Source of the DNA: Candidatus Bathyarchaeota archaeon | GTDB taxonomy: Archaea; Thermoproteota; Bathyarchaeia; Bathyarchaeales; Bathyarchaeaceae | Assembly (NCBI GenBank): GCA_004376295.1 | Contig: SOJZ01000005.1 | Coordinates: 33,914-97,913 of the forward strand | Length of the DNA: 64,000 nucleotides | Direction: 5' to 3' | Shown: piece by piece, positions 134 to 48,078 of the stretch | How positions within the stretch are numbered: position 1 is the first letter of the stretch | Layout: each line of letters begins with the position of its first letter | Translations under genes and position numbers: made by a program | The notes under the pieces: generated by a model | Database searches by the model: none | What the model saw: only the letters and a program-made list of their open reading frames with translations | Told to the model about the DNA's origin: nothing

Positions 134-1132
134 CTAGGATTTCATTTCTTCGAAAACCCAATCCAAGCCATCTTCTATGTTCTTTGCGATTTCCTGAAAA
201 TTCTCTAATAGGTAATTCATACTGGAATAGAACCCTCTCATAATGCCCCTTTTGGATTCGTTTTGGAGAGGGCAAATCCAATAGAATGAAGTGAAGAACA
301 ATGATTTTTTCGAAGAGTTGACCCTGTCAACATAAGTCGTGTATATATTCCAACCTGACCGTTGACTTGCCAATTTCCAATATAATCCAATAAGATCAGG
401 ATGTTTCTCTGACAAGTCTTCAATGCTTGAAACCAATTTAGCTCCAGACAAACTATACGCCATGTCTAGATCTTCAGAAATGGCGTCAAGAACAGATTCA
501 AATTCTCCTTCATCTTTCTGGGTTTTTGCCAGCAGAATCTTACTCCATTTTCGGTACACAAAATACAATGAAACCCAAACCTTTACCGAGTTATCCTTCA
601 CCACCCATAGTTTAGCGATTTCTTCAGCAGTGAATCTGTGTTTTGTGTAGTTCGACTTCCTTCTTCCAAGAATTAGGCTATGCGCTTTTATCAATGAGAG
701 TACTATAGGATGCCTTGAGAAGTAAAGACAGCAGTATTCAATCGATTCATTTCTAACGAGAAATTCATGCAATGCATCTGCGTTCCAGAATTCAACACTG
801 CCCGATTGTTTCTCTGTATGATCCCTGAAAGGTCTTGTCGGATTTTCAATATGAACATAGATTGCCTTCGCATCATGTGTATTCTGTTCAAAGCGCGTAA
901 ACTGTTCAATGTCACCTTTTCTGGGTTTCATCTTTACCTGTATGGCTACTTTCTCACCGTTTTTTTCGCAAAAGAGGTCTATTCCGCGTTCATGGGTGCG
1001 GTCTGTTTTGTGAAAATTCGTAACTGAAAAGCTATTTCTACTATAGACCTTTTCAAGGCAGTCTAGGACAAAATTCTCATCAAATTCATTCCAGATTTTA
1101 ATCCTGTATTCAGTTTTCATAATAAACTTCAC
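134..1132 (-). CDS. PD-(D/E)xK (Mrr-like) nuclease-fold domain fused to an unrecognised C-terminal domain
   Basis: 332-aa ORF. The N-terminal ~100 aa carry ERGIDLF...GEKVAIQVK, matching the D...(D/E)xK pattern of Mrr-cat type restriction endonucleases. The C-terminal ~220 aa are not recognised. Confidence 0.6.
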   Translation of the reverse strand: MKFIMKTEYRIKIWNEFDENFVLDCLEKVYSRNSFSVTNFHKTDRTHERGIDLFCEKNGEKVAIQVKMKPRKGDIEQFTRFEQNTHDAKAIYVHIENPTRPFRDHTEKQSGSVEFWNADALHEFLVRNESIEYCCLYFSRHPIVLSLIKAHSLILGRRKSNYTKHRFTAEEIAKLWVVKDNSVKVWVSLYFVYRKWSKILLAKTQKDEGEFESVLDAISEDLDMAYSLSGAKLVSSIEDLSEKHPDLIGLYWKLASQRSGWNIYTTYVDRVNSSKKSLFFTSFYWICPLQNESKRGIMRGFYSSMNYLLENFQEIAKNIEDGLDWVFEEMKS

Positions 1133-2277: not shown

Positions 2278-2748
2278 CTATTGTTCCTTATCTTTGCTGA
2301 ATCTGTAGAAGACTCTGCTGTCGGGCAATTCAACTATTTTTAGGTTGACTTTGTCTCCGATTTTGAGGTCTTCGTATTTGGCGTCGTCGATTCTGGCCGA
2401 AATGAGTAAACTGCCGATCTTGACTATGCCGACGCAGAAGGGTACGTCTTCGACAAAACCCAATGGAGCACCGAGCCTTATCTCAGTGAAAGCATACAAT
2501 TCGCCTTCCACGCCTAAGTCGACCCATTCGAGGCTTTCAGAAAGACATTCAGGACACATAATTCTTGGAGGCCACAAAACTTTTCCGCACTCCTTGCACT
2601 TCGTTGTAGTTAAGTGTCCTTCCTTAAGGCTCTTAAAGAACTGGCTGATCCTGGTGTTCTTCTCATCTTGCAACGGATAGAAATCCAGCATGAACGGAAG
2701 CCCTATCTTTTCTGGACGCTTTATCTTCTCAAACTTCACCATGCTCAT
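2278..2748 (-). CDS. DUF35 Zn-ribbon/OB-fold protein (thiolase-associated)
   Basis: CKECGKVLWPPRIMCPEC rubredoxin-like zinc ribbon followed by an OB-fold-like C-terminus. There is a 4-nt overlap with the upstream thiolase, the usual archaeal thiolase/DUF35 pairing. Confidence 0.85.
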   Translation of the reverse strand: MSMVKFEKIKRPEKIGLPFMLDFYPLQDEKNTRISQFFKSLKEGHLTTTKCKECGKVLWPPRIMCPECLSESLEWVDLGVEGELYAFTEIRLGAPLGFVEDVPFCVGIVKIGSLLISARIDDAKYEDLKIGDKVNLKIVELPDSRVFYRFSKDKEQ

Positions 2749-3926
2749 CTCAGCTCCCTTGAACAGACCAGTATAGAATGCAGATTCGCTGCCCCACTTA
2801 GACTGTGCTGAATCCCGATTTCAGCGCCTTCAACATATCTTCCTTTGTCAACGTCTCCCCTGAATTGCTTCAGTATTTCAAAGGTGTGATAAATAGAGGT
2901 CGCGCCTAAAGGATGACCACAACCCATGATTCCGCCACTAGGGTTTACAGCCACCTTCCCTCCAATGTATGGTTCCCCATCCTCAATGAATTGTCCACCC
3001 TTGCCTGTTTCACAGAATCCAAGCCCTTCATACTCCATAATCTCGGAGATCGTGAAGCAGTCGTGTACTTCAGCGATATCAACATCATCCTTCGTGATCT
3101 TCGCTGTTCTCCAGGCCTCCTTTGCAGCCAGCTTGAGTGGAACCCACTCCGCCAAGCTTGCCAGATTGTTGATTACGTTTCCGATAGCGTATTGACCGGA
3201 CCCGATAAGATACATCGGCGTATCCGTGTACTTCTTCGCATCCTCAGCCCGAACCAGAATAACCCCAGCCGACCCATCCGTCATAGGGCAACAATCAAAA
3301 AGTTTAAGCGGAGGAGCCACCACCGGCGATTTAAGTACTGCCTCAACAGTAACCTCTTTCCGAAGATGAGCAATAGGATTCAACGACGAGTAATGGTGAT
3401 TTTTCACGGAAACCAAAGCCATCTGCTCCTCAGTGGTGCCAAACTCATACATGTGCCTCTGAGCCGTCACAGCAAAAATCGGAGGAGCAGAAAAACAGTT
3501 AATTCCGTCCCATTCTCGATCCAAAACGCACGTCATAGTCGTCTGAGCCTCAGCCATGTCCGGCTGATACATCTTCTCCACCCCAATAGCAACAGCAATA
3601 TCAGACATACCCGTCGCAACACAATTCCACGCATAACGGATCGCCGCCTGACCCGAAACACAAGCAAGCTCCGTCCTCGCAATAACCTTCCTAGGAGTCA
3701 CACCAATATATTCAGCAACCAAAGGAGCCACATAAGACAGAAAAGCAAACCTCTCAGGCTGAGCCGCCCCAACAAAGATAGAGTCAACATCCTTAGGCGA
3801 TAAATTGTCAACATCCTCAAACAACGCTTTTCCTGCTTCTTGCACTAGGTCCCTCCAGCTGGCAGCTCTCCTACCAGCCTTTGCCTCACCCCCAGCAACT
3901 ATGGCAACTTGTTTCATCGAAATCAC
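2745..3926 (-). CDS. thiolase (acetyl-CoA C-acetyltransferase, SCP-x-like type)
   Basis: 393 aa. It has the active-site context ELACVSGQAAI, C-terminal GGIMGCGHPLGATS, and thiolase length. Confidence 0.9.
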   Translation of the reverse strand: MISMKQVAIVAGGEAKAGRRAASWRDLVQEAGKALFEDVDNLSPKDVDSIFVGAAQPERFAFLSYVAPLVAEYIGVTPRKVIARTELACVSGQAAIRYAWNCVATGMSDIAVAIGVEKMYQPDMAEAQTTMTCVLDREWDGINCFSAPPIFAVTAQRHMYEFGTTEEQMALVSVKNHHYSSLNPIAHLRKEVTVEAVLKSPVVAPPLKLFDCCPMTDGSAGVILVRAEDAKKYTDTPMYLIGSGQYAIGNVINNLASLAEWVPLKLAAKEAWRTAKITKDDVDIAEVHDCFTISEIMEYEGLGFCETGKGGQFIEDGEPYIGGKVAVNPSGGIMGCGHPLGATSIYHTFEILKQFRGDVDKGRYVEGAEIGIQHSLSGAANLHSILVCSRELR

Positions 3927-7710: not shown

Positions 7711-8889
7711 CTAGTAGGATTTCGGCAAGCCCAAAACATGCTCACCGATAAAAGCCAAAACCATCTGATGGGTCACAGGCGCAAGTCTAATCAGATTCAC
7801 CTCTCTCCACCAACGCTCTACATCATACTCCACAGCATAACCATAACCACCAAAAGTCTGCATAGCATGATAAACAGCCTCAGTACCAGCCTCAACAGCA
7901 GCAACCTTAGCCATGTTAGCCTCGGCACCGCACCGTTGCCCCTTATCATAAAGCCAAGCAGCCCGGTAATTCAACAACCTAGCAGCTTCAATTTTCGCCT
8001 TAGCCTTGGCAAGTGGAAACTGAATAGCCTGATGAGAACCAATAGGCACACCAAAAACCCTCCTCTCCCTAGCATACTCAACAGCCTTCCGGATAGCTAA
8101 AAGCCCAATACCGCACGCAGCCGCAGAAAAAGACATCCTCTCAGGATTCAAAGTATCCAAAACAAGATACCAGCCCTTATCCCTCTCGCCCAACAGGTTC
8201 TCCTCAGGAACCCTAAGATCATCAATGTGAACCTCATCAGTCTCAGAATAGTGGATTCCATGCTTTTCTATCGGAATAATCTCGACCGCAGGGTTGGGCA
8301 AATCCACAAGGAAGAGACTCAAACCCAAAGTCCTTTTCGGAGCCCTTTCCAAAGGAGTCGTCCTGGTTATGAGCACCATTCCCTTAGCCCTATCAGCACC
8401 AGAAATAAACATCTTCTGACCGTTGATAACATACTCGTCACCCTCTTTAACAGCCATAGTTCTCGTGTTCAAAGTGTTCGTCCCAGCGTCGGGCTCGGTT
8501 AAAGCCAAACAAAACTCCGTACCCTTAGCGATTTTCGGCAGGTACTTCTCCTTTTGACTCTCATTACCATGCTTCACTATGGTTAATCCTCCGAAAACTG
8601 AGGTTAAACATAGAAACCATTCTCCAGCCAATCCACAACCCTCAGAGGTCAAAGTTTCCATGGCCAAAATCATCTCAAACATTCCCATCCCACTCCCACC
8701 GTACTTTTCAGGAATAAATATACCCGGAAAACCAGCCTCAACCAAAGTCTTCCAGAAATCCTCAGGAAACTCATGCTTCTTGTCCTTCTCCCTCCAATAC
8801 TCCGGACCGAAATCTCGAGCAATATCAGAAGCCGCTTCAACAATCATTTTCTGTTCAACACTCAACTCAAAATTCAAAGCTTCTCCCAA
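7711..8889 (-). CDS. acyl-CoA dehydrogenase
   Basis: 392 aa. It has LTEPDAGTN, a QKMFISGA-type core and C-terminal FGGYGY..EYDVERWWRE. The coding strand is strongly G+T-rich. Confidence 0.9.
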   Translation of the reverse strand: MGEALNFELSVEQKMIVEAASDIARDFGPEYWREKDKKHEFPEDFWKTLVEAGFPGIFIPEKYGGSGMGMFEMILAMETLTSEGCGLAGEWFLCLTSVFGGLTIVKHGNESQKEKYLPKIAKGTEFCLALTEPDAGTNTLNTRTMAVKEGDEYVINGQKMFISGADRAKGMVLITRTTPLERAPKRTLGLSLFLVDLPNPAVEIIPIEKHGIHYSETDEVHIDDLRVPEENLLGERDKGWYLVLDTLNPERMSFSAAACGIGLLAIRKAVEYARERRVFGVPIGSHQAIQFPLAKAKAKIEAARLLNYRAAWLYDKGQRCGAEANMAKVAAVEAGTEAVYHAMQTFGGYGYAVEYDVERWWREVNLIRLAPVTHQMVLAFIGEHVLGLPKSY

Positions 8890-12141: not shown

Positions 12142-13353
12142 CTATTCCAAAGTTTTCAGGTAGGTCTCCAGTTTTGTTTTCACTTGGTATTCGTCGTAGT
12201 TTCTCCAGTCGGATGAATCCACGTCGAGAATGAGGCTTGGCACTTTAAGTTTCTTGTAGATCACTTCTTTCACGATGGTTTCTCCTATGGACATCATTCT
12301 GCATCCCCAGTTGGTAGGGAGGATAATCAGATTGGCGTGAAAGTCTTTTGCGAGGTTAAGGATGAGGTCGATTTTTCTTTCGATGCCGCAGTTGGCGAAG
12401 TTTGGGAGATATTTTCTGGCTAGGCTTTCTAGGGGTTTTGAGGGGTTCAGGCTTCCGGTCCAAACGTGGGAGAAGGTTTCGGCCACAGTGATTGCGCCTA
12501 GGTTGTTTAGGTAATTGAAGAATTTCAGGTTGAACCACATGGGTAGGTTGTCCCAGATTAACCTATATCTTTCGTTTTGGATTTTGCCTATGCCATTTTT
12601 TGCTAGTTCTTTGACTTCGTCTCGTAGTTTTTCGTAGAAGTTTACTGCTGTTTGGGTGGCGGGTATGCAGAGCATGAAGAAGATGGCTGAGAAGGCGTCT
12701 CTGGCGCCCATGGGTGTTGGAATGTTTTTTCTGTAGTCTTGGATTTCTAACCAGAGGTTGCTTGTGTGATCTGACAGTGCTATGGTTTTTCGTAGTTTGT
12801 TTTTGTCTAGTGGTTTGTCTGTTTGTTTTTCTAGGAAGGTAGTTAGTTCTTCTAGTTGCGAGACGTATTGTTTTATGTGGTGGGTTTCGAGGTTTTCTGC
12901 GTCTGTGCCGGCGGTGTTGTAGGGTGTGTCTAGGAGGAATAGTGGACGTTTTAGGTGGTGGCTGAGGACTTGGAACCATTTTAGATGGGTGTCGCAGGCA
13001 GCTGTTGATGCCACTAGGAAGTTGGGTTTTGGCATGCCTCCTTCTGGAAGATCTTGGTTGCTTTCTGTTAAAATGGAGCCGATTACAGTTCTGGCGTAGG
13101 AGCATAGGTCTCTGGAGTAGCCGTGTCTTTCGGCCACTTCTGCAAGGGGTACAGAGACTTTTCTTGCTGCGCATACTGAGGCGTAGTTTTCGGGCCATAT
13201 GGGGGTGATGTCCATGGCTTGGAGGATTTCGACTGGGAAGGTTGAGGCTACCCAGGCGATGGGTTTGCGTTCTTTTTGGCTTTTGTGGGCATTTTGGTAG
13301 TATGGGTGTATGTGGTTTTGGTAGAAGCCTTGGAGTGTTTGTAGTCTTGTCAT
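12142..13353 (-). CDS. 2-hydroxyacyl-CoA dehydratase family subunit (HgdB/BcrB-like)
   Basis: 403 aa with the HgdB-type N-terminus (PIAWVASTFPVEILQAMDITPIWPEN). Cys residues are spaced as in the family and it abuts the partner subunit. The coding strand is strongly A+C-rich. Confidence 0.8.
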   Translation of the reverse strand: MTRLQTLQGFYQNHIHPYYQNAHKSQKERKPIAWVASTFPVEILQAMDITPIWPENYASVCAARKVSVPLAEVAERHGYSRDLCSYARTVIGSILTESNQDLPEGGMPKPNFLVASTAACDTHLKWFQVLSHHLKRPLFLLDTPYNTAGTDAENLETHHIKQYVSQLEELTTFLEKQTDKPLDKNKLRKTIALSDHTSNLWLEIQDYRKNIPTPMGARDAFSAIFFMLCIPATQTAVNFYEKLRDEVKELAKNGIGKIQNERYRLIWDNLPMWFNLKFFNYLNNLGAITVAETFSHVWTGSLNPSKPLESLARKYLPNFANCGIERKIDLILNLAKDFHANLIILPTNWGCRMMSIGETIVKEVIYKKLKVPSLILDVDSSDWRNYDEYQVKTKLETYLKTLE

Positions 13354-13355
13354 AG

Positions 13356-14474
13356 TTAGGGGACTCCTTTTATTGTTTCTATGAAGGCTTCAATTCTTGT
13401 TTTTATGGGGGCTATTCCGCTTCTGGTGTGTTCCCATTCGAGGTTTAGGACTGGTATGCCTTGGTTTTTCAGTTCTTCTGTTAGGAGAGGGGCGTCGAAC
13501 ATGTGGGTGTCGCAGAATTTCAGGAGGAAGTTGATGACGGCTTCGACGTTGTATTGTTTAATCATGTTTTTGATGTGGTTGAATCTTTCTTGATGATGGT
13601 ATCTGGAGGGGGATGGGATTTTGTTTAGGTAGCGTTTGGAGATGGCTTTTATGGGGTCTTTGTCTGTACGGACGAGGTTCCAGAAGTATCTTGTTCCCGT
13701 GCATAGGTCGTCTGCTACTGCGATTCCACCAACGGTTTCGATTATGTTTAGTAGGTCTGTGATGTCCATCATGCTTCCTGTGATTAGGAGTCTTACGCCG
13801 GGTTTTGGTGGGTCTGAACGGTTTTCTATTTCTTTCAGCAGTTGTTTCAGCAGTTTGTTGTGCTCTTTCTTGGGTGTTAGCATACTTGATAGGACGATTT
13901 CTAGGGCTTCTGCTCCGCTAATGAGGGGTGGGTCCTTTCTCCTTAGGTCATAGACTTTTTTGAGGAGGTTTCTGTTTTCATTGTAGAGTTGGATTGTGCG
14001 TTGGATTGTTTTGTTGGTTATGGTGGTTTTGAAAGTTTCTTCTAGGGATTTTTTGAATCTTATGATTTCTTGGTGGAAGAATTCATGAGCCTTTGGAGTG
14101 TTTGTGTGGGGGGTGTTTATGAAGTGGAAGTAGGGGATTTTTGCGTGGTATCTCCAGAGGTCGTAGGTTTTGGTGAAGTTATCGCAGGAGTTGGAGGTGA
14201 CAAGACCGTCTAGATAGGCGTAGTCGCTTCTCAAGGCTAGGTCAAAGGTGCTACGGGCGAAGGAACAGGCGTTGCGAGGTAGGAAGGCGTCCGCCAAGGT
14301 GGTGGGTTTCATGCTTCCTACGATTCTGACTGGTAAGGCACCTATGGCGTTGATGATTTCTTCTGGTGTGTAGGTGCTGTTCCAGCCTATGACGGGTTTG
14401 TTTTGGCTTTTCCAGTTCCCTGCGATGCTGTGTCTTTTGGAGAGCATGTTTCTGAAAGACTGTAAAATCTGCAT
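13356..14474 (-). CDS. 2-hydroxyacyl-CoA dehydratase family subunit (HgdA/BcrC-like)
   Basis: 372 aa with PVIGWNSTYTPEEIINAIGALPVRI, SNSCDNF and CTGTRYF. There is a 2-nt gap to the partner subunit. Confidence 0.8.
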   Translation of the reverse strand: MQILQSFRNMLSKRHSIAGNWKSQNKPVIGWNSTYTPEEIINAIGALPVRIVGSMKPTTLADAFLPRNACSFARSTFDLALRSDYAYLDGLVTSNSCDNFTKTYDLWRYHAKIPYFHFINTPHTNTPKAHEFFHQEIIRFKKSLEETFKTTITNKTIQRTIQLYNENRNLLKKVYDLRRKDPPLISGAEALEIVLSSMLTPKKEHNKLLKQLLKEIENRSDPPKPGVRLLITGSMMDITDLLNIIETVGGIAVADDLCTGTRYFWNLVRTDKDPIKAISKRYLNKIPSPSRYHHQERFNHIKNMIKQYNVEAVINFLLKFCDTHMFDAPLLTEELKNQGIPVLNLEWEHTRSGIAPIKTRIEAFIETIKGVP

Positions 14475-14595
14475 GATATAGACACTCAGATTTGGGATTG
14501 TTGTTAAGAAGGAGGCTTAACTCTTAAACAATACGATTGCAGAAGACCATCTCGTTATGAGTTGTGTGACATACATGCTCAAATCCCCATAAACA

Positions 14596-15564
14596 CTAGC
14601 TCTTCTTCTTCAGATACCTGTTCTCCAAAGCCTTCAACAACCCAGTCAAAACAATATTCACAGGCGTCTCAACCCCATACAGTTCTCCATAACCCGCAAT
14701 AGCTCCACTCAAAAAATCAACTTCAATCCTCCGCCTACTCTCTACATCCACCAACATAGAAGGCTTATGAGCCCCACCCTTCTTCAAATAACCAGTAAAC
14801 CTGTCAAGCGCATCCTCACCGAAATCATAACCATCCGCTTCAGCCACCATCAACCCCTCCTCAAGCACTTTCACTGCAACATCACGACTAAACCCAAACT
14901 CCATAGCCCCTTTCATAGTCTGCCCAGTCAAAGCACAAACCGAGCACAAAGCAGAATTCAAAATCGTCTTCTCCCACACATGCTTCTTAATGTCTGGTGC
15001 CTCTTCGGTCTCTAACCCAGAAACTGTCATAATCTCAGCAATGTACTTCGTCGTCTCATCAGTCGTATACCGTCCACTCTTGAGAGCACCAACATAGTTC
15101 GGAGGCTGAAACCAATTCATCTTTGCACTACCAGAGCTCACCAACTCCCCAGCGTAATTAATCACCACACGATAAGCAGTATCAATCCCCAAAGTCTCAA
15201 CAGCAACCCGCTCATTATCCAATCCGTTCTGAAAACTAACAACACTCATTCCAGCCTTATACACAGACTTGAGCTCAGCCAAAACAATCCTCAGAAAACA
15301 AGCCTTCGTCGCAACAAAAACAATGTCAGGCTCAAACTCAGCCAACTCAGCCAACGAACCCACAACTTTGTCAAACCGAGCAGCCAACTCCCTAATTCCA
15401 GAAACCCTCAAACCATCCTCCCTAATCTTGACCAAAAGCTCTTTGGCGATATCCTCCACAACCACATCCACCCCACCCTTAGCTAAATGAGCAGCCAAAA
15501 TGGACCCAACAGGACCTAAACCGATAATCCCGACTGTCGGCCTTTTCATGGGCACATCCCGCAA
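14596..15564 (-). CDS. ketopantoate reductase family (PanE/ApbA) 2-oxoacid reductase
   Basis: 322 aa. N-terminal Rossmann motif VGIIGLGPVGSILAAHL, with ApbA-type length and C-terminal domain. Confidence 0.75.
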   Translation of the reverse strand: MRDVPMKRPTVGIIGLGPVGSILAAHLAKGGVDVVVEDIAKELLVKIREDGLRVSGIRELAARFDKVVGSLAELAEFEPDIVFVATKACFLRIVLAELKSVYKAGMSVVSFQNGLDNERVAVETLGIDTAYRVVINYAGELVSSGSAKMNWFQPPNYVGALKSGRYTTDETTKYIAEIMTVSGLETEEAPDIKKHVWEKTILNSALCSVCALTGQTMKGAMEFGFSRDVAVKVLEEGLMVAEADGYDFGEDALDRFTGYLKKGGAHKPSMLVDVESRRRIEVDFLSGAIAGYGELYGVETPVNIVLTGLLKALENRYLKKKS

Positions 15565-15611
15565 ACTACATTACGCCACACATCGTTTAAAAGCATGTTT
15601 GCAGCGAGGTT

Positions 15612-17754: not shown

Positions 17755-18339
17755 CTATTTCTTCTCAGGCTCGGTTTTCTCGAAATCCTCAAACACTCTC
17801 TTAAGCTGTCGCTTCATAGTCCGCAAATCATGACTCAAACCAAAATAGTCAGCAAAAAACCCAGTCGTCCGTAACAATCTAGTCCGACCAACCCTCTCAC
17901 GAGAAATCAAACCCATACTCTCCAACTGCCTCAAATGACCATAAGCATGATGACCCCGCACATCAACAACCTGAGGCTGCAAAACAGGCTGTCGATAAGC
18001 AATGTAAGATAACGTCTTCAACGGGCCCTTAGAAAGAAGCGGCCGAATCGCCAACCTCTGAACCTGAGGTGAATATTCAGCCTTTAACTGCAAAACAAAC
18101 CGTTTATCCTCAAGCTCCAAGATTTCAAGGGCGGTTTCACGATTCTTATACTCTTCCATAAGAATGCTTACCAGCCTCTGAACCTTCCTCTTAGAACGAG
18201 TCTTAATGATAGATCCTAACGTCCTGAGATCCAGAGGACGCCCCGCCACATAGAGAGCAGCCTCTAATAAAGCTGAATCACGTTTCAACTTCTCTTCGCT
18301 AAGTAGCTCAGATGATTTCCGCTCTATCTCCTCCAACAA
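17755..18339 (-). CDS. scpB: segregation and condensation protein B (KITE subunit)
   Basis: 194 aa with tandem winged-helix signatures (LEAALYVAGRPL..., LSYIAYRQPV...). It is the last gene of the smc-scpA-scpB string. Confidence 0.85.
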   Translation of the reverse strand: MLEEIERKSSELLSEEKLKRDSALLEAALYVAGRPLDLRTLGSIIKTRSKRKVQRLVSILMEEYKNRETALEILELEDKRFVLQLKAEYSPQVQRLAIRPLLSKGPLKTLSYIAYRQPVLQPQVVDVRGHHAYGHLRQLESMGLISRERVGRTRLLRTTGFFADYFGLSHDLRTMKRQLKRVFEDFEKTEPEKK

Positions 18340-22808: not shown

Positions 22809-22850
22809 CCCCCCCGTATAGGGGGTCTATAAAGAGAGAGACACACCCAA
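22809..22850 (+). repeat. TATAGGGGG...AGAGAGACAC intergenic repeat, copy 1
   Basis: cccccccgTATAGGGGGTCTATAAAGAGAGAGACACACCCAAATAAC. It starts 41 nt beyond the stop of the minus-strand gene 22891..23436. Confidence 0.8.
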
Positions 22851-22890
22851 ATAACATTACAAAACAGATAACCTCAAAACTCAACACAAA

Positions 22891-23436
22891 CTAAGCAGAT
22901 ACACTTTTCTTCGTCTTACGTTTCAAAAAATCCTGTTGTAACCTCAACCTCTTAATAAACGATTTCACACTCTCATCATCCCCATAAACAAGCACAAACC
23001 CATTCTCCTGCATTTTGTGCAAAAGCCCATTTTCCTCAGCCAAATTTTCGATATCCTCCTGAGGAGTATCTTCCGAAACTTGAACCCGCACCCAACATTT
23101 ACCTCGTGGAAGCCCTGAAACAAACCTTGAAACAACTTTCACCTCTTCCTCCCCAGAAATCCTTTTTCTAGCCACCCCAAGCTTTCCCATCCAATGCTCC
23201 ACAAACTCAGACCCAAACTTCTCCTGTGCCATGGAAATAAGATAGAATTCAACGTTTTCTAGGTATGTCTCAATTCTCGGAATATTCTTGATGTGTGATG
23301 GATCGGCTTTAAAAATCTGTATCATCGTCTTAGCAGAGCGCAGATCATTCATGACACTAGCCGGAATTACTGCACCCTTTTTCCGAAGCTCGGTGATCAG
23401 ATCTGCCAACACTTTCCATGTTTCCTCGTAACGCAT
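22891..23436 (-). CDS. conserved archaeal hypothetical protein (possibly DUF2096-like)
   Basis: 181-aa ORF with coding-like composition. The family assignment is from memory only and is uncertain. Confidence 0.5.
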   Translation of the reverse strand: MRYEETWKVLADLITELRKKGAVIPASVMNDLRSAKTMIQIFKADPSHIKNIPRIETYLENVEFYLISMAQEKFGSEFVEHWMGKLGVARKRISGEEEVKVVSRFVSGLPRGKCWVRVQVSEDTPQEDIENLAEENGLLHKMQENGFVLVYGDDESVKSFIKRLRLQQDFLKRKTKKSVSA

Positions 23437-31893: not shown

Positions 31894-32717
31894 GCGTTTT
31901 TGACGGCTTCAAGTTTAGAAGAGTTTATTCTCCGATTCACCAGCTGGATCCACGAGTCAAATTCTTCTATGTTTTGGTGATGTTCGTGATTGCGATTATG
32001 TTTAATCAGTTGCTACCTCTCATTCTGTTGTTTTTCATTCAATTACCATTTGTGTTTGTGGCTGGTGTTCAGCGGGAGTGGGTTCGATCTCTGAGAGGGG
32101 CTTTATTCTTTGCGATCATGATTTTTTTGTTCAACTTTGTTTTTCAATATTTTTGGACTGAATATCCTCTACCGCCGTCTCCATCTTTGTTGGAATATTC
32201 CATTGCCATGACCCTTCGTTTCATCGTATTAATTGAATCCTTCTCTATGTTCTTTCTCACAACCTCCCCAGACCATTTAGGATTAGCATTAGAGCAAAGT
32301 CATGTACCATACGAGTTTTGCTTCGCCTTCACCACCGCCGTTCGCTTCGTTCCGGTTTTGGCTGAGGAGGCTCAAACAATTATGGATGCTCAGAAGGCTA
32401 GAGGGCTGGAACTTGAACGTGGGAACTTCATTAAAAAAGTGAGAAACTACATTCCCATTCTTATTCCACTCATCGTTAGCGCAATCCGTAGAAGCTTGGA
32501 GCTTGCTGAAGCGATGGAATCTCGAGCTTGGGGCGCAACTGAAAAGCGCACGAACCTCTACGTGCTTGAGATGGAAAGAGGCGACTACATTCTAATCCTC
32601 ATATCTGTCTTGATACTAATCTTTGCTGTCTACGTTTGGGTTTTCCATCGTGAACAGATTCCACTGCTAACCAGCTTCTTGGCTCCCTTAGAATTGACTG
32701 TGACCAAAATATCCTAA
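31890..32717 (+). CDS. ecfT: ECF transporter transmembrane (T) component
   Basis: 275 aa, polytopic, with the CbiQ/EcfT-type ARG..LE motif region (MDAQKARGLELERG). There is a 4-nt overlap with ecfA2. Confidence 0.85.
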   Translation: MSVFDGFKFRRVYSPIHQLDPRVKFFYVLVMFVIAIMFNQLLPLILLFFIQLPFVFVAGVQREWVRSLRGALFFAIMIFLFNFVFQYFWTEYPLPPSPSLLEYSIAMTLRFIVLIESFSMFFLTTSPDHLGLALEQSHVPYEFCFAFTTAVRFVPVLAEEAQTIMDAQKARGLELERGNFIKKVRNYIPILIPLIVSAIRRSLELAEAMESRAWGATEKRTNLYVLEMERGDYILILISVLILIFAVYVWVFHREQIPLLTSFLAPLELTVTKIS

Positions 32718-35979: not shown

Positions 35980-36269
35980 CTTTTTCTTCTCCTTTCATCT
36001 TATTTAATGCGAGCTTATAATAGTGACCTATATCGATTTTAATCTTGTGGAACTTACTTCCATGCACAAGCCACCTAGGCTCTAATCTACTTGCTCTCAA
36101 AAACTCGTTCCAAGACACAAACAACTTGACAACACATCAGCTCTCACGGACTTACCTCGTGAGTTCACTCTTCTATTTTTCTATTGCTTCTGAAATGATC
36201 CCTGTGGGAATGCGTATTCCTTTTAATAGCGGAGATATTTCTATTACGGGCAAACTGAGGGCTCACCGG

Positions 36270-38315
36270 ATGCTGATTCGAGAAGTCATCCTCGAAAATT
36301 TCATGTCTTACGAATATGCTAGGATACCCTTTAAACCAGGCGTCAATATCGCTTGTGGGCCTAATGGCTCAGGTAAGTCGTCTATACTGCTGGGAATTTC
36401 AGTTGCGCTGGGTCAATCCTACACCGAACGATCTAAAAAGTTAAGCGACCTCATTCGATGGGGTAAAGACCAAGCGCGCGTCACGTTAGTCTTGGACAAC
36501 TCTCGAAAAAGCGGGCGTCGACCAGTTCCAAGAATCAATAAAGACTACATTTTTTTGACTAGAATGTTGAGGCGTGACGGAAAATACTGGTTCGAACTAG
36601 AAAACAGGGCTGCAAATAAGAGAGATGTCGAAAGGCTTCTCTCAAAGCTTGGAGTTGACCCGGACAACATGCTAATTATTATGCACCAAAATATGGTGGA
36701 ACAGTTCACGGTGCTCCAGCCTCAAGAAAAGCTCAAGATGGTGGAAGCAGCGGTGGGGTTCGAATCCTACCGCCAAAACGTTTCTAAGGCTCAACGAAAG
36801 CTTAGCCGTATCCTAAGTCAAGAAGAGTCGGTGGGCAAGCTCCTCGAATCTGCTGAACAGACGCTGGGCTATTGGAGAGAACAGTACGACAGGTACCAAC
36901 GGAAAAAACAGCTAAGAATGAAGCGGAAATTCCTTGAACGAGAATCGGCGTGGGCCGAAGTTTCAAGGCGTGAGAAAACGGTTACTGAACTGAGAAATCA
37001 GGTTCGAGGAAAACAAAGTGAAATCTCACATATCGAAAATGAAACAGAAATCATTAATGATCAACTAAACAAGCTTCAGATGAGACTGGAACAAGCAAAG
37101 ACTGAATGGCAAAACATTCTTCAAAAACGATTGAAACTGGAATACGAAAAGGCAAAGCACGAAGTAGGCGTTTCACTGGCCAATCAAACCATAGAAAAAA
37201 CACAATCTTGGTCAGAAATTCGACAGAAAGGAATAAAGGACTGCCTAGACAAAATAACGCAGCTAGAGACGACATTTCATAGGATTGTAAACCCCATAGA
37301 TATAAAAACTCGATTTGCAGAACTCAAGGAAACCTACGAAAATTTTGAAAACACGTGGACTCAACAGTTAAACCTTAGAAGTGAAGGTTTGAAAGCCTCT
37401 ATTGAAAACTCCTACGAGCAACTCGAAAAGTTGCGTGTCATAATCTCGGACGTTGAAGCAAGGGGGGATCACCTAAATTTCGAGATCGAAGGTACCAACG
37501 GGGAACTTTTGGATTATAAGATTAACTTAGCTTTACTACAGTATCGAAAAGAAATCGCCACAAAGACTCTAGAAAAACTGAAAAAACAGCTTAAAGTCTC
37601 GCTTGCTGATCTTGACGAAGCAGTAGAAAAGGCTAAGGAGATAGGTCCACAGATCGTGCCCACGAAAAATGTTGCAGAGATTTTAGACGAGATTCGAGTG
37701 ACAGATGGACACCTCGCCGCCCTTGCCGACGTTTCCGAAGACATCGAACGTATGTACGAGTCATACTCTAAGCTTTACCTAGAACTGAAGGAAAAAGCTC
37801 AGTTGGTTGCGGAAAACCGTGAAAAAGCCTTGGAAGAAGTAAAGATGAGGATGACAGCGTGGAGAATGGTTATTCAAGACCTCCTTAAGCATGTTAACCT
37901 CCGATACGCGGGAATCCTTTCACAAGCTCAAGCGATCGGAGAGGTTAAGTTGGTAAACGAACATGATATCGAAGATGCAGGTCTCGAAATACTTGTGGGT
38001 TTCAAGGGGGGAAAACCTGTTCCTCTTAACTCCTACACGCAGAGCGGTGGGGAAAGAAGTATTGCAACCATGAGTTTTCTCCTCGCGTTGCAGCAGCACG
38101 TTCGATCTCCGTTCAGAGCTGTTGACGAGTATGACATTCATATGGACCCAAAAAATAGAGAGATTATCGCTGATCTACTTGTTTCCTCAATTAAGGGTTT
38201 GGATGCCCAATACTTAGCGATCACGCCTAGTCAGATAACGTTCACGGGAAAAGACGTTCACATCATTACAGTTCAAAACGTTGAAGGAACTTCGCTTGTT
38301 AAAGAGGTAGTCTAA
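36270..38315 (+). CDS. compact SMC-family ATPase with Smc5/6-like head motifs and no recognisable hinge
   Basis: 681 aa from the ATG at 36270 (MLIREVILENFMSY). Walker A GPNGSGKSS, Q-loop region IIMHQNMVEQF, about 360 aa of heptad-rich sequence, signature YTQSGGERSIATMSFLLALQ and Walker B/D-loop PFRAVDEYDIHMD. No Gly-rich hinge and no CxxC hook. Confidence 0.8.
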   Translation: MLIREVILENFMSYEYARIPFKPGVNIACGPNGSGKSSILLGISVALGQSYTERSKKLSDLIRWGKDQARVTLVLDNSRKSGRRPVPRINKDYIFLTRMLRRDGKYWFELENRAANKRDVERLLSKLGVDPDNMLIIMHQNMVEQFTVLQPQEKLKMVEAAVGFESYRQNVSKAQRKLSRILSQEESVGKLLESAEQTLGYWREQYDRYQRKKQLRMKRKFLERESAWAEVSRREKTVTELRNQVRGKQSEISHIENETEIINDQLNKLQMRLEQAKTEWQNILQKRLKLEYEKAKHEVGVSLANQTIEKTQSWSEIRQKGIKDCLDKITQLETTFHRIVNPIDIKTRFAELKETYENFENTWTQQLNLRSEGLKASIENSYEQLEKLRVIISDVEARGDHLNFEIEGTNGELLDYKINLALLQYRKEIATKTLEKLKKQLKVSLADLDEAVEKAKEIGPQIVPTKNVAEILDEIRVTDGHLAALADVSEDIERMYESYSKLYLELKEKAQLVAENREKALEEVKMRMTAWRMVIQDLLKHVNLRYAGILSQAQAIGEVKLVNEHDIEDAGLEILVGFKGGKPVPLNSYTQSGGERSIATMSFLLALQQHVRSPFRAVDEYDIHMDPKNREIIADLLVSSIKGLDAQYLAITPSQITFTGKDVHIITVQNVEGTSLVKEVV

Positions 38316-39134
38316 TTGTCCTCAAAAAGGCAGAGGAAAAAACTCGGTAGCGAACGTCTTCAACGCGTCATTGACTTATGCAAGTCTGTTGAGGAAAGAG
38401 GTCTTGATCCTTTCATCGTGGATGTTGACGACATTCTAACGGTTGTTCGAGAATATTTCCCAGAGTGGGAGCTGCCAGAAGAACTCTGCTTAGACGCCGA
38501 AGCTATTCACAAACTAGCCTCGGTCATTAAGCTCCAAAGCGACTGGTTGAAGCATCAGTCAACTTCTCTCTACACTGATCCGTTTCTGCTTGAGGAGAAA
38601 ATACGAAGGCTAAGCAAAGAAGAGCTTGCTAACCTTTTTCTTGAGATTTGGCATCCTATTGTTGAGTTAGAACAGATATCCCCTCATAGCTTGGCTGAAG
38701 CCACCAAATACTGGCAAAGCCTCCTTCCAATCAGCGAGAGATGGCTAAAAACCTCCTCTGTAGAAACGGAAACTGGAGCCACAACACGGGAAGAGTTAAT
38801 CAAGCAGAGAATACTCGCTGAAAAAGCTTTCTCAGAAGAGTTAGAAATGTCTTGGGAAGAATTAAAACAGAAGGTCGGCGGTGCAGGTAAGATTCGATAC
38901 TGGGATTTCATTGGCGCCGACACGTATTCTGAAACGATAAAGCGAGCGTATATGACAAGTTTTCTTGTAACATATGGATACGCAACCTTGGAAGTGCATC
39001 GACTAGAGGAAGAGATTTTCATTAAACCCTTCGAAAAACCAGCGTCTATGATCGGGAAAAAGCAGTTGATCTCTATTCCTGTTTCTGTGAGCGCCGAAGA
39101 ATGGATGAAGTGGAAAAGAGGCGAGCAAGATTGA
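38316..39134 (+). CDS. kleisin-like (ScpA-like) protein
   Basis: 272 aa. A TTG start directly follows the TAA of the SMC-like gene. The N-terminal helical segment (LDPFIVDVDDILTVVREYF...AIHKLASVIKLQSDWL) and C-terminal winged-helix-like segment (TIKRAYMTSFLVTYGYATLEVHRLEEEIFIKP) parallel the ScpA encoded at 18308..19006. Confidence 0.6.
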   Translation: MSSKRQRKKLGSERLQRVIDLCKSVEERGLDPFIVDVDDILTVVREYFPEWELPEELCLDAEAIHKLASVIKLQSDWLKHQSTSLYTDPFLLEEKIRRLSKEELANLFLEIWHPIVELEQISPHSLAEATKYWQSLLPISERWLKTSSVETETGATTREELIKQRILAEKAFSEELEMSWEELKQKVGGAGKIRYWDFIGADTYSETIKRAYMTSFLVTYGYATLEVHRLEEEIFIKPFEKPASMIGKKQLISIPVSVSAEEWMKWKRGEQD

Positions 39135-39688
39135 GGCGAAAAGGGTATTACATGAGAAAAATTAAGAGAGCCACGCATCTCCTATTTTACAGACACCACA
39201 GAAAGCCAGGAGTGAAGGGCTGGGAACTAAGAAGAAGGTTAGGCTCTGACTATCCTAAGGTGCTTGGGATACTGGACGGTCATTTGGAAAAACTGGATTT
39301 ACAAGTGAAGACAGTTTTTGAAGGGGAAAAAACCGTTGAGAAACCGACTGTTCAGCAGCTGGACAAAGCTCGATTCTATATAACGCTTCGAGGAAGCCTT
39401 ACACCAAAGGAGACTAAAATGATGGGTTGGCGCATCGACGACATCGCGGGGCTAGCTACAGCTATCTCTTGTATAATATCGAAGAAGGGAAAAGCACCGA
39501 GAGAAGAGGTGGAAGACCTTCTGCGGAACAAGCTTCCCGGCTGGAGGGTAGACATAAACATGAATCGTTACATTCGATCCGGCTACCTAGCTGAAGATGA
39601 GAACAAACAACTATACCTCGACTGGAGAACCAGCGCCGAGATTGACCAAAAAACTTTGGTTGATCTACTTTTAGGAACTGAAAGCTGA
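39101..39688 (+). CDS. tandem winged-helix (KITE-like) protein
   Basis: 195 aa (178 aa if translation starts at the ATG at 39152). It has two WH-like units (ATHLLFYRHHRKPGVKGWELRRRLG..., GLATAISCIISKKGKAPREEVEDLL...YIRSGYLAED) arranged as in ScpB/Nse1-3. It is the third gene of the string. Confidence 0.55.
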   Translation: MDEVEKRRARLRRKGYYMRKIKRATHLLFYRHHRKPGVKGWELRRRLGSDYPKVLGILDGHLEKLDLQVKTVFEGEKTVEKPTVQQLDKARFYITLRGSLTPKETKMMGWRIDDIAGLATAISCIISKKGKAPREEVEDLLRNKLPGWRVDINMNRYIRSGYLAEDENKQLYLDWRTSAEIDQKTLVDLLLGTES

Positions 39689-41024: not shown

Positions 41025-41420
41025 TCAATGAATAAAGATGAAAAAATGTGCGAGTATGGCTATAAGCCACAGTATAGAACCGATCATTACTATGATTGTT
41101 CCTTCTTTTCGATAGCGTTTCCTTTCCTCAGTCGTCAGTCTTTTGAAGAGAATTCTATGGTCCAGCCAAGCTGAACCTGAATAAGGGTATCTTTGATTTA
41201 TTGTTGAATGGCAGTTCTTCCTATAGTAGAGGAGAGAGAGAAGAAGCTGGACGCCACCCACAAACACCAAAAAACCCCCCTCGTAAACAAAAATGGCAGC
41301 AGAAAGAATGTTTGATATCCATAGAATAGGCAAAACGAACAAATTTACAACTGCAACATACCCAAAAACTTTCACCACAAACTTAATCCAATCGACATTT
41401 CGCTCAAAAATAACCTTCAT
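41025..41420 (-). CDS. small polytopic membrane protein (paralog of 53802..54176)
   Basis: 132 aa from the internal ATG (MKVIFERNVDW). It shares YEGGF.V..GGVQ.L.S..Y...........PYS....W.D...F..L...ER.RYR.EGTI.V.IG.IL architecture with 53802..54176. The longer listed ORF reads into the upstream repeat. Confidence 0.6.
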   Translation of the reverse strand: MKVIFERNVDWIKFVVKVFGYVAVVNLFVLPILWISNILSAAIFVYEGGFLVFVGGVQLLLSLLYYRKNCHSTINQRYPYSGSAWLDHRILFKRLTTEERKRYRKEGTIIVMIGSILWLIAILAHFFIFIH

Positions 41421-41477
41421 TGTGTCCCTGATAAAAAAGTAGTGAGAACATATAGGCTTTACTCGGGCCAAAAAAAT

Positions 41478-41525
41478 TATAGGGGGGGGGGCTATAGGGG
41501 GTCTAAAGAGAGAGACACGCAAATA
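41478..41525 (+). repeat. TATAGGGGG...AGAGAGACAC intergenic repeat, copy 2 (contains a G10 tract)
   Basis: TATAGGGGGGGGGGCTATAGGGGGTCTAAAGAGAGAGACACGCAAATAACG, with G10 at 41482-41491. It ends 29 nt beyond the stop of the Sm gene. Confidence 0.8.
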
Positions 41526-41553
41526 ACGTAACAAACAAACCTAAATCCTACTC

Positions 41554-41784
41554 TTACTTCCTCTTAGGAACATCAGTCCTAATATACAAAACATTATTGC
41601 CACGAACCAAAACACGACCATAATTAGCAACCAGCTCATCCTTAAACCGCTCAACAGCACCCTCCAACAAAATATTCATATAACCATCACAACGAACAAC
41701 AGTCCCACGATACTCAACACCACTCTTCAAAACAATAGCCACATAACAATTCAACAGCTTCGCCAAAACATTCAAAGGCTTCAT
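41554..41784 (-). CDS. Sm-like archaeal protein (LSm)
   Basis: 76 aa from the internal ATG (MKPLNVLAKLL). Sm1 is VAIVLKSGVEYRGTVVRCDGYMNILLEGA and Sm2 is RVLVRGNNVLYI. The hydrophobic N-terminal extension of the listed ORF is unlikely to be real. Confidence 0.85.
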   Translation of the reverse strand: MKPLNVLAKLLNCYVAIVLKSGVEYRGTVVRCDGYMNILLEGAVERFKDELVANYGRVLVRGNNVLYIRTDVPKRK

Positions 41785-41936
41785 ACTCGGCTCCAACACA
41801 AACACCAACAATACACACAAACCCAACCATATAAAAGCTTTATGAAACAAACTCCACCAAAACAAAACCCAACAAAACCCTAATAGAACCATATATTAGA
41901 TCGGGGTAGAAACCTTCATATACACAACAGGAACCC

Positions 41937-43085
41937 TCACTCAATCATCTTTCGAATCTCCTCCTCTAATTTGCCCGCCACATCAAACTTCCTATTCATC
42001 TCCCGCTTTATTAGATCAATGGTCTTCACAGGTGCAGGATCTACACCTTGCAGAATCGCCAAAAAAACGCTTACAAAGTCTCCCACAAGTAGCACAGAAA
42101 ACATCTTCGCTAATCCTCCTTTCCCCCTCGCATAGATTTCCAAGACTTTTTGAGCTTTATGTAAAGCCAGCATTTTGGTCATCTCAATTCTATGTTTGAT
42201 TTCCGGCGGCTCATTATGGTCTCGAATAAGTATAACCGAAAATTTCTTTGCGAGGTCTTCAGAGACTTCCCATCCAACAGCTTCATTGTGATTGAGCTCT
42301 GGAAAGACGTCATATACGCTGAGAAGTTTGCTGTTTTCGTTAAACTGCGTTTTCATTCGATGGGCTACGGCTCTAGATTGTCCAAATCCGTAGACCACAG
42401 GTATGGTTTCTTTCAACTCCAAAGCCAACGTTTTTGACATGTTCTTCTTTGTGGGAATGTAAGGGGAGTTTTCTTCACTCACCTTTTTGAGAACCCGTAT
42501 GGCTTCTTCAATGTCTTTCTCTATGTTCGAAAGAATATCCATCTTCTCTAAGAGGATTGGGAGCGGAAAGAATATGTAGGGAATTGCGGCGCGTGGGGGT
42601 CGTCCGTTAGGTATTGTTACGTGCGGTATCTGCAGTTTCTTGGAGAAGGAGAGGAGGTGTCCTCCTGAGCTTATGGTTATGGTCATGCATTTTCTGCGGA
42701 TAGCATCGATAAATGCGCTAAGTGTTTCTGCAGTTTCTCCTGAGTAGCTGATCGCAAAAACGAGCGTGTTTCTGTTTGCGTAAGCGGGTAGAGTGTAGTT
42801 TCTGCATATTTGAATGGGGATGGGAAGCTTGTCTTGAAGCCAGTCTTGGAGTATTTCTCCTCCTATGGCGGAGCCTCCCATGCCTGTGATTATGATGTTT
42901 TGGGGTTTCTTATATTTGATTGTGATTTTTTTGGAAACTTTTACCTCGTTTGGGATTTTAATCTTTTTAGCTCTTTGTATAGCGTCTTGGCAGTATTCAG
43001 GGGTTTTCACGCACAGATTAAGCATGTTGCTTTTGTCGATTTTTTCTAATTCTTCTGGTATATCTAGAATGGTAGTCTCGTGCAT
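41937..43085 (-). CDS. bifunctional phosphoglucose/phosphomannose isomerase (SIS family)
   Basis: 382 aa with IITGMGGSAIGGEIL, ISYSGETAET and archaeal PGI/PMI-like overall architecture. Confidence 0.75.
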   Translation of the reverse strand: MHETTILDIPEELEKIDKSNMLNLCVKTPEYCQDAIQRAKKIKIPNEVKVSKKITIKYKKPQNIIITGMGGSAIGGEILQDWLQDKLPIPIQICRNYTLPAYANRNTLVFAISYSGETAETLSAFIDAIRRKCMTITISSGGHLLSFSKKLQIPHVTIPNGRPPRAAIPYIFFPLPILLEKMDILSNIEKDIEEAIRVLKKVSEENSPYIPTKKNMSKTLALELKETIPVVYGFGQSRAVAHRMKTQFNENSKLLSVYDVFPELNHNEAVGWEVSEDLAKKFSVILIRDHNEPPEIKHRIEMTKMLALHKAQKVLEIYARGKGGLAKMFSVLLVGDFVSVFLAILQGVDPAPVKTIDLIKREMNRKFDVAGKLEEEIRKMIE

Positions 43086-43180
43086 TTTTTCACCTTGCTA
43101 TTTCTAATGAGCTTATGATGCTTGATTGTGAAGCTATGGATAAATAGTTTTAGAGGTTTGTTGGTATATGTAAAAGAGTT

Positions 43181-44062: not shown

Positions 44063-44087
44063 GTTGTTTGTGTTTTTCACGTTTTTT

Positions 44088-44118
44088 GCGTGTGTCTCTC
44101 TTTAGATCCCCCTCTAAA
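44088..44118 (-). repeat. TATAGGGGG...AGAGAGACAC intergenic repeat, copy 3 (inverted, degenerate)
   Basis: The plus strand reads gcgtgtgtctctctttagatccccctctaaa. Its reverse complement is TTTAGAGGGGGATCTAAAGAGAGACACACGC. It starts 26 nt after the SPOUT gene stop. Confidence 0.7.
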
Positions 44119-44136
44119 TTTTTTTCACGGTTTCTT

Positions 44137-44178
44137 GTTCTCTCTCTTTTATAGACCCCCCTATAGCCCCCCTATACC
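44137..44178 (-). repeat. TATAGGGGG...AGAGAGACAC intergenic repeat, copy 4 (inverted)
   Basis: The plus strand reads gttctctctcttttatagacccccctatagcccccctatacc. Its reverse complement is GGTATAGGGGGGCTATAGGGGGGTCTATAAAAGAGAGAGAAC. Confidence 0.8.
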
Positions 44179-44392
44179 AAGGGCCATTCTGTGGAAAGCC
44201 CGTGATCACGGTTTTGAGCTTCTTTGCTTCTTCAATGGGCTTTCTCTACCCAATATAGTATCAAAGGTAAGAGGGTCATATGTTTTCAGACTGCGTGAAC
44301 GAGTTGATGTGCGCAAGCATTGTGAAGGGGAAAGACTCTGATGTATGGCGATATAAGAAAGCTTATATGCAAGATCACCCAATAATATATTG

Positions 44393-47280: not shown

Positions 47281-47296
47281 AGCGAGAGTGAGATGG

Positions 47297-48076: not shown

Positions 48077-48078
48077 GC

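Follow-up and report, generated by a model that had tools for sequence, protein, structure and literature searches.

How can two neighbouring genes that are read in the same direction, with a spacer of 121 nucleotides (nt) between them, carry opposite extremes of strand composition? The question is raised by a 64,000-nt stretch of a Candidatus Bathyarchaeota archaeon genome (contig SOJZ01000005.1, positions 33,914 to 97,913; hereafter the window, numbered from its first letter), in which a sequence-only reading had described sharp-edged kilobase blocks of extreme G+T or A+C excess that ignore gene orientation, and had singled out positions 12142-15564, where hgdB-like, hgdA-like and PanE/ApbA-like genes follow one another on the minus strand. 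The blocks are real DNA-strand composition domains in the Bathyarchaeia chromosome, with the size of recombination tracts, and the flip in sign between hgdA and PanE is best read, on sequence comparison, as the junction of two alleles with separate histories, joined by recombination. Full-text literature searches found no description of such patches, which apparently constitute an undescribed, real and strong form of strand compositional asymmetry.

Composition is expressed here as keto skew, (G+T-A-C)/N, and the keto skew of third codon positions (position-3 keto skew) is given for the coding strand. A three-state hidden Markov model (HMM) on keto (G+T) content delimits ten blocks of 0.2-2.3 kb in the window, with keto skews of +/-0.27-0.42 in a background near 0; the same blocks are recovered by sliding windows and by run detection, and a separate composition tool reproduces their profile. 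The plus strand of the whole window is 50.3% G+T, and within the blocks GC skew and TA skew contribute in about equal shares, with G+C content steady at 0.40-0.49. The two blocks that meet at the flagged spacer (14475-14595) are a G+T-rich block at 12310-14568 (plus-strand skew +0.34), holding the hgdA-like gene (13356-14474, minus) and all but the last ~170 nt of the hgdB-like gene (12142-13353, minus), both of the HGD-D family (Pfam) and A+C-rich on their coding strands, and an A+C-rich block at 14569-15582 (plus-strand skew -0.34), holding the PanE/ApbA-like gene (14596-15564, minus, Pfam), whose coding strand is G+T-rich. Skew of this size stands out from chance variation: 300-nt keto skew has a background median of 0 and a robust standard deviation (sd) of 0.11, and its sd is 0.147 over the whole window versus 0.069 in a 50-kb Escherichia coli control, in which the same HMM finds zero blocks and the genes have position-3 skews of only -0.01 to 0.24. 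Third codon positions in the blocks reach 80-97% G/T or A/C, bearing out the near-exclusive third-position usage that had been claimed for the two classes of genes. Position-3 keto skew is -0.68 for both hgdB-like and hgdA-like, +0.70 for PanE, +0.88 for Sm, +0.80 for the SPOUT methyltransferase, -0.60 for rpl3, +0.57 for acyl-CoA dehydrogenase (ACAD) and +0.59 for ScpB; it is -0.15 for rpl4 and mostly about 0 for the remaining genes. Codon positions 1 and 2 move in the same direction in most skewed genes, and third positions are skewed far more. Two of the hand counts on 60-nt lines from which the blocks had been noticed were repeated, and both agree within 1-2 bases. The named genes all have strong Pfam matches, the source organism is placed in Bathyarchaeia, and the window is otherwise ordinary core chromosome encoding SMC/ScpAB, proteasome, exosome, ribosomal proteins and beta-oxidation-type enzymes; Rfam and tRNA scans of it found no RNA gene.

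That the skew belongs to the DNA strand, not to the coding strand, is confirmed by a survey of about 2 Mb of Bathyarchaeia DNA, comprising 80 rpl3-centred loci from different species (1.26 Mb) and 80 metagenome loci around hgdA. Skewed neighbours in opposite orientation share a DNA-strand sign in 8/8 Pfam-verified pairs, so that the coding strands within each pair are of opposite class, G+T-rich in one gene and A+C-rich in the other: the 5' half of the PGI-like gene with SPOUT in this window, Lactamase_B with the tRNA-intron endonuclease, NUDIX with PIN, a Na/H exchanger with GCV_H, ERCC4 with Amidohydro_2, a molybdopterin oxidoreductase with a radical SAM gene, hgdB with an AMP-binding enzyme, and an amidohydrolase with its neighbours. 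Among skewed neighbours in the same orientation the sign is common to 37 of 38 pairs, the lone exception being hgdA/PanE of this window, so that the flip reported across 14475-14595 stands as a singular event. Spacers within blocks are skewed with their block in every case (11/11, mean 0.24), as exemplified by 43086-43180 (+0.31) and by the 152 nt of non-coding DNA upstream of Sm (41785-41936, -0.54), and the 80-nt intergenic flanks of extreme genes have skews of about 0.2 versus -0.01 in controls, untranslated regions being skewed too. Along the plus strand, the PGI-like gene (41937-43085) begins A+C-rich, becomes neutral and ends G+T-rich. Aggregation of 60 blocks gives a flat plateau with a step at both ends, and block edges are no closer to the borders of open reading frames (ORFs) than random positions are, although several blocks of the window do end at gene ends. 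The sharp edges that had been noted are real, and they do not always coincide with gene borders. Mirrored pairs of blocks with opposite signs exist, at a frequency not clearly above that expected from block clustering.

These features bear on the proposal that composition itself is selected, either because A+C-only or G+U-only transcripts form no Watson-Crick self-structure (A+C-rich coding strands also being devoid of T-run terminators), or because genes fall into two codon-usage classes. Third positions are indeed the most skewed, amino-acid divergence is not raised, and the sign is conserved among homologues (119 same versus 0 opposite at 80-92% identity; 78 versus 8 at 65-80%), in counts that are dominated by hgdAB and PanE. 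Strand coherence, skewed spacers and untranslated regions, the switch inside the PGI-like gene and edges unrelated to genes exclude codon-usage classes and selection on the sense transcript, opposed neighbours taking opposite coding signs in all eight pairs; recent substitutions, described below, are moreover unrestrained. Selection on composition is thus largely refuted by the strand coherence, and we consider it very improbable as the origin of the blocks.

An assembly chimera, which the sequence-only reading had offered as an alternative for the block edges, is refuted because independent assemblies carry the same patches and junctions. Contigs from seven Logan runs and three Joint Genome Institute (JGI) metagenomes, ten independent assemblies in all, encode the exact rpl3 protein; they match 41507-52740 at 98.5-100% and cross four block edges. 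The PanE/hgdA junction is spanned by two further JGI contigs (L099 and L097), one of which differs at 4/501 positions, and every junction is crossed by independent Logan and JGI assemblies, at 93-100% identity overall. The hgdAB block is also present in closed genomes of relatives, including CP070754, and the reading frames and Pfam domains of the window are intact, leaving a negligible chance that the blocks are products of assembly or of sequencing chemistry. Nor are they peculiar to this genome: blocks make up 5.2% of the 1.26 Mb in rpl3-centred loci (median 640 nt, largest 2.8 kb) and 9.6% of the DNA in the hgdA-centred loci, and about 4% of 1526 ORFs have position-3 skews beyond +/-0.45. 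Several lineages have an A+C-coded rpl3, and one or two have a G+T-coded version.

The sequence-only reading had compared the pattern to a build-up of C-to-T and A-to-G changes on one strand, as on the vertebrate mitochondrial H strand. The substitution spectrum was obtained from coding-strand changes at synonymous third positions relative to CP070679 (L012), the nearest unskewed relative. In hgdAB, G>A outnumbers A>G by 61 to 5 and T>C outnumbers C>T by 94 to 18, and PanE and ScpB present the mirror image (for ScpB, A>G 24 versus G>A 6 and C>T 22 versus T>C 2), whereas the neutral ACS, SMC and AMP-binding genes have symmetric spectra. Transitions are the largest class and are strongly polar, and A-to-T and C-to-G transversions run the same way, ~59 toward the skew versus 12 away, with transversions toward the favoured class enriched in every block. 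A young block in a thiolase gene (2745-3926, minus), which occupies 3206-3806 (codons 40-240; HMM core 3578-3825) and is G+T-rich on the coding strand and A+C-rich on the plus strand, has no counterpart in the sister genome of the window (L011). Its third positions are 78-95% G/T versus 55-65% in L011, and its 4-fold sites record 18 amino-to-keto transitions, 11 amino-to-keto transversions, 14 G<->T changes and a single keto-to-amino change. Of the keto sites there, 21% have undergone G<->T change versus 6% in neutral genes, a 3.5-fold rise. Divergence from L011 is higher in the block than in the remainder of the gene, with synonymous amino-to-keto changes raised at least five-fold and amino-acid identity of 0.93-1.00. 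Neighbouring bases have no influence, dinucleotide odds in blocks being those of neutral DNA. Protein identities to CP070679 are 0.72-0.88 for skewed and 0.78-0.84 for neutral genes; the bias does reach amino acids, as had been claimed, through directional replacements (up versus down, SPOUT 66 versus 14, Sm 15 versus 2, hgdA 18 versus 45), with ScpB balanced at 10 versus 10.

On recent branches (window, L013 and L014) the substitution rate of blocks equals that of neutral genes. Because recent changes run against the skew (third positions of SPOUT and rpl3, about 48 away versus 22 toward; hgdB of the window versus L097, 16 away versus 1 toward), the blocks are eroding, not being made. In this genome the blocks represent alleles that were inherited or imported, and nothing that would generate skew can be seen at work today.

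One candidate for the past force is strand-specific damage in place, in which one strand of each block was repeatedly single-stranded and gained C>T and A>G changes by deamination. Exposure could come from sense or antisense transcription, R-loops, local one-way DNA synthesis or resection at a break hotspot, and its consequences would be magnified because these sediment archaea grow very slowly. The polar transitions of hgdAB, mirrored in PanE, and the unchanged G+C content agree with such damage, and the likeness to animal mitochondria is considerable, one strand being G+T-rich and the other A+C-rich, transitions dominating, and third positions and amino acids tracking the strand instead of gene orientation (PMC2779903). 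The mitochondrial asymmetry, however, spans a whole replicon and is tied to replication, whereas the present blocks are 0.2-2.8 kb patches of either sign in an otherwise symmetric chromosome, attain higher values (up to 97% at third positions), include transversions and are not maintained. Mammalian transcription-associated TA and GC skew likewise involves G+T excess with step-like borders, the non-template strand having excesses of A>G, C>T and A>T (PMC2927911); its sign follows transcription and its amplitude is a few per cent, whereas the blocks ignore gene orientation, are roughly ten-fold stronger and have edges that are not tied to genes. Two blocks do terminate at a T-rich 3' motif, and the rpl3 skew arose independently in several lineages with no sign of transfer, as local damage would allow. 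Against damage, both signs occur on both strands whatever the direction of genes, and highly expressed ribosomal genes are mostly neutral or A+C-coded. Block edges are enriched in neither TATA-like nor T-run signals, antisense transcription units being still conceivable, and T5 runs, which should halt archaeal transcription, recur about once every 100 nt on the G+T-rich strand. The excess of within-class G<->T changes, the absence of sequence context, the unraised amino-acid divergence despite the synonymous amino-to-keto rise, and the lack on recent branches of any bias able to maintain the skew likewise oppose it, and it does not predict the discordant histories described below. Deamination of the mitochondrial type is thus at best part of the story, and strand-specific damage as a whole appears an unlikely source of the blocks. 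Clustered hypermutation by APOBEC/AID-like kataegis or diversity-generating retroelements was rejected: context is absent, third positions are the most affected, and no reverse transcriptase or deaminase was found in the window.

The histories of hgdAB and PanE address the sign flip directly. All twelve hgdA genes at least 76.5% identical to that of the window are A+C-coded (-0.54 to -0.75) except that of CP070679, all PanE genes at least 75.6% identical are G+T-coded with the same exception, and more distant homologues of both are neutral; the skewed alleles occur in differing gene contexts and orientations. Transversion divergence at 4-fold sites was used as a composition-neutral clock; A and C are in equal use within every 4-fold family, so that saturation lies at 0.48 and codon preference offers no explanation. 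For the neutral AMPb (AMP-binding), 3HCDH and ECH genes, the window is 0.11-0.15 from L011, 0.31 from L012 and 0.39-0.44 from L094, the last close to saturation. The corresponding distances are 0.12, 0.31 and 0.12 for hgdA and 0.16, 0.32 and 0.21 for hgdB, and PanE is 0.27 from L012 and 0.21 from L094. More generally, hgdAB alleles are about 0.16-0.24 apart at genome distances of 0.07 and of 0.40 alike. Within hgdB, L095 and L096 have 90-94% nucleotide identity to the window, above the sister genome, and at the extreme 3' end of the gene the window rejoins L011 and CP070679. Judged by these sequence distances, the hgdAB and PanE alleles evidently belong to classes shared across lineages whose neutral genes are near saturation, and it is because of this sharing that the flip within the 121-nt gap can be taken as a recombination mosaic.

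The ancestral layout is PanE-hgdA-hgdB in a single direction, and the junction at 14475-14595 is a hotspot of rearrangement. In CP070679 an HTH (AsnC-type) gene is inserted there (L012 8853-9338), in CP070754 hgdAB lies in a different neighbourhood (L011 9083-12333), and in L094-type genomes PanE is inverted and 7.5 kb away. In L094, PanE and hgdAB stand on opposite strands and have one common DNA-strand sign. The hgdAB block of the window has counterparts in L011, L094, L095 and L096. A distant clade (L167, L169, L172, L174 and L175, ~55% identical in hgdA) has PanE and hgdA mildly A+C-coded (-0.3 to -0.48) in one co-directional block, which suggests that skew arose independently in this operon.

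Mosaic ancestry, another alternative offered by the sequence-only reading, is therefore supported for the flagged region, where hgdAB and PanE are much nearer to lineages such as L094 than their neutral neighbours are, and is not seen for rpl3. Three sets, hgdAB, PanE and the thiolase block, have histories discordant with their flanks. Lower divergence of skewed genes relative to neighbouring ones was rejected as a general rule, the mean difference being -0.005 over 57 locus pairs, with discordance in both directions and strongest for hgdAB and PanE, as was horizontal sharing of A+C-coded rpl3 alleles, whose divergence is like that of neighbouring genes.

Discordant tracts might have been imported from a replicon or lineage with extreme replication-strand asymmetry throughout its genome, tracts of 0.3-3 kb recombining in and then decaying to host composition. 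Tract shape, the occurrence of both signs, DNA-strand coherence (including the opposed PanE and hgdAB of L094), the discordant sets and the present decay of skew are all as import would have them. The blocks resemble ordinary horizontally acquired DNA undergoing amelioration in being atypical tracts with discordant histories that drift back to host composition, and differ from it in having keto/amino skew at normal G+C, in replacing orthologues in place, and in that donors of this composition are not known. Borrelia is an example of a replication-linked split in codon usage, and in the Borrelia/Chlamydia type of leading/lagging split, as here, G/T or A/C gene endings are set by the DNA strand; the scale there is that of replichores, with one switch at the origin and one at the terminus and a modest amplitude, in contrast to kilobase patches. 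The window instead has ten small blocks in a background near 0, and none of the 160 related loci (~2 Mb, closed genomes included) has an absolute keto skew >0.24 over any 5 kb. To our knowledge, no cellular genome has third-position skews of +/-0.8-0.9. No viral contig with relatives of hgdA or SPOUT was found, core genes such as rpl3, Sm and ScpB would need to have been present in the donor with their synteny preserved, and import merely relocates the problem of how the skew arose. We accordingly regard import from such a source as rather improbable.

Any model must cover strand-polar tracts of either sign, near-complete synonymous recoding without extra protein change, a spectrum lacking only changes away from the favoured base class, discordant histories and the lack of present activity. 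The mechanism that we favour over its rivals, tentative and unproven and in our view short of probable, is that the skew was made by homeologous recombination filtered by an EndoMS/NucS-type mismatch endonuclease, which would account for all of these. EndoMS cleaves G/T, G/G and T/T mismatches specifically (PMC6159521), and the PDB holds structures of archaeal EndoMS/NucS. NucS represses homeologous recombination (a 10-fold effect in Mycobacterium smegmatis) and is the predominant mismatch repair in Crenarchaeota (PMC8228993). When the twelve possible differences between an invading and a recipient strand are enumerated, a cleavable mismatch arises only when the invading strand brings A>G, A>T, C>T or C>G, whereas keto-to-amino and within-class differences give A/C, A/A, C/C, C/T or A/G mismatches that the enzyme ignores. 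Amino-to-keto donor variants on the invading strand would thus be rejected or repaired back, and keto-to-amino and within-class variants would pass. Each event would shift the invading strand toward A+C and its partner toward G+T, exactly over the heteroduplex tract. Donor variants would come from related lineages, already vetted by selection, and synonymous sites could therefore be converted almost completely without damage to the protein, a few events of one polarity being sufficient. Once skewed, an allele would present fewer cleavable mismatches on one strand, which would ease its passage across the barriers between lineages. The asymmetry of the thiolase block at 4-fold sites of the coding strand (29 amino-to-keto and 14 within-keto changes versus 1 keto-to-amino) fits such a filter, and like asymmetry is found in hgdAB, PanE and ScpB.

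The broader form of the proposal, that NucS specificity drives a strand-polar biased gene conversion which writes kilobase skewed tracts, recodes synonymous sites in few events and eases passage between species, we judge doubtful. It has points in common with the mismatch-repair barrier to recombination and with biased gene conversion, namely selection of transferred variants by recognition of heteroduplex mismatches and a tract-wise directional push on composition. MutS barriers and GC-biased conversion are strand-symmetric, whereas a filter blind to A/C, A/A and C/C would be strand-polar, a consequence of EndoMS/NucS specificity of which no description was found in the searched literature.

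Several observations weigh against recombination through such a filter. NucS was found neither in the window nor by a motif scan of the examined loci of relatives, and one database search for NucS listed Thermococcales alone. The action of NucS is known in vitro and in M. smegmatis, and its action on archaeal heteroduplex is assumed. If the polarity of the invading strand were random, successive events would partly cancel, and extremes of 90-97% would consequently need repeated events of the same polarity or a donor that was already skewed. The history of rpl3 is not discordant, its A+C-coded alleles being 0.36 apart across lineages versus 0.38 for neighbouring genes, and relative to CP070679 every skewed gene has an ordinary transversion distance. 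Three gene sets supply the discordance, the neutral genes compared with L094 are metabolic and have orthology secured by synteny for AMPb only, and polarisation by parsimony is imperfect in skewed sequence.

The remaining blocks of the window are distributed over a range of core genes. ACAD (7711-8889, minus, Pfam; coding strand G+T-rich) has an HMM core at 7726-8225 that is A+C-rich on the plus strand, and the ScpB gene (17755-18339, minus; coding strand G+T-rich) is skewed at third positions alone. An A+C-rich HMM block at 22831-23218 lies in a DUF2096 gene (22891-23436, minus, Pfam). The A+C-rich block at 41251-42103 (plus-strand skew -0.36, HMM) contains the Sm gene (41554-41784, or to 41892; 75/77 third positions A/C on the plus strand) together with 108 nt of non-coding DNA before it and 300 nt after it, and reaches into the 3' end of the PGI-like gene. 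It is separated by the unskewed centre of that gene (42104-42574) from a G+T-rich block of opposite sign at 42575-44103 (+0.40, HMM), which runs from the 5' half of the PGI-like gene (minus; coding strand A+C-rich) across the spacer between the two divergent genes and through the SPOUT methyltransferase gene (43181/43190-44062, plus, Pfam; coding strand G+T-rich). In the right-hand part of the unskewed centre, the window differs from Logan assemblies L001 and L002 at ~50 positions in ~250 nt (42363-42609), the surroundings being ~99% identical, and this cluster looks like a recent recombination tract. The A+C-rich block at 46222-47274 (-0.27, HMM) covers rpl3 (46273-47280, plus) and is common to L013 and L014 and missing in L057; the next gene, rpl4, is unskewed. 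Two small blocks that are G+T-rich on the plus strand (HMM) complete the set, at 31962-32156 and 50232-50488. The latter has a TA skew of +0.76 and a GC skew of -0.28, which is to say a pyrimidine-rich plus strand and purine-rich S27e and S24e coding strands, and is ordinary purine loading, not part of the keto/amino phenomenon.

A conserved 3' motif of ~45 nt, GCGTGTCTCTCTCTTTAGACCCCCTATAG followed by T runs, lies downstream of a stop codon at 44071-44177 (plus), with further copies at 41470-41537 and 22812-22863 (both minus), one of which marks the start of the block at 22831-23218. The copies follow the stop codons of SPOUT, Sm and DUF2096, all with G+T-rich coding strands, by 20-45 nt (4 matches versus 0 expected), making the motif a candidate link to the skew that is unproven. 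On its opposite strand it resembles a TATA-like element directed back into the gene, and possible readings of it are a terminator, an antisense promoter and a small repeat element. Its confinement to this species group led to its rejection as a marker of blocks in general. The idea that inverted repeats border a mobile element around Sm-PGI-SPOUT was likewise rejected, the repeat being this motif in both orientations, with no transposase or integrase between the flanking copies.

Other features of the window include a stretch of low G+C (0.35-0.37) at 52800-56400, with which are associated 61-nt and 45-nt repeats in three copies each (54181, 54784 and 56027; 40932, 53690 and 55765), paralogous small ORFs (41025-41534 and 53802-54176) and a PLD-like nuclease gene (54855-55730); this stretch may be an integrated element or a defence islet. 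At 36045-39688, the gene for a 756-amino-acid SMC_N/Rad50-like ATPase precedes two others (38316-39134 and 39101-39688) that match no Pfam family, in a set kept in CP070679. The left end of the window (134-1132) holds an Mrr_cat restriction-endonuclease-like gene that adjoins a 312-amino-acid ORF without family match.

For the analysis of Bathyarchaeia genomes the blocks have practical consequences. Stop codons need T and A and are hence rare in every frame of a block, on both strands, so that gene callers over-predict there, as exemplified by long spurious ORFs overlapping real genes at 12563-13198, 13636-13953, 43565-44080 and 46410-47009, some of them on the opposite strand. The blocks will also mislead detectors of codon usage and of horizontal transfer, and will bias marker-gene phylogenies, for example of rpl3. 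Strand asymmetry, usually the footprint of replication or transcription direction, here takes the form of small, extreme and heritable patches of either sign, strong enough to reshape proteins and to recode 80-97% of third positions. If the blocks are products of recombination, they would serve as tracers of gene flow between uncultured Bathyarchaeia lineages, and if the mismatch filter is true, it would link a known enzyme specificity to a new evolutionary force, testable in tractable organisms that possess NucS.

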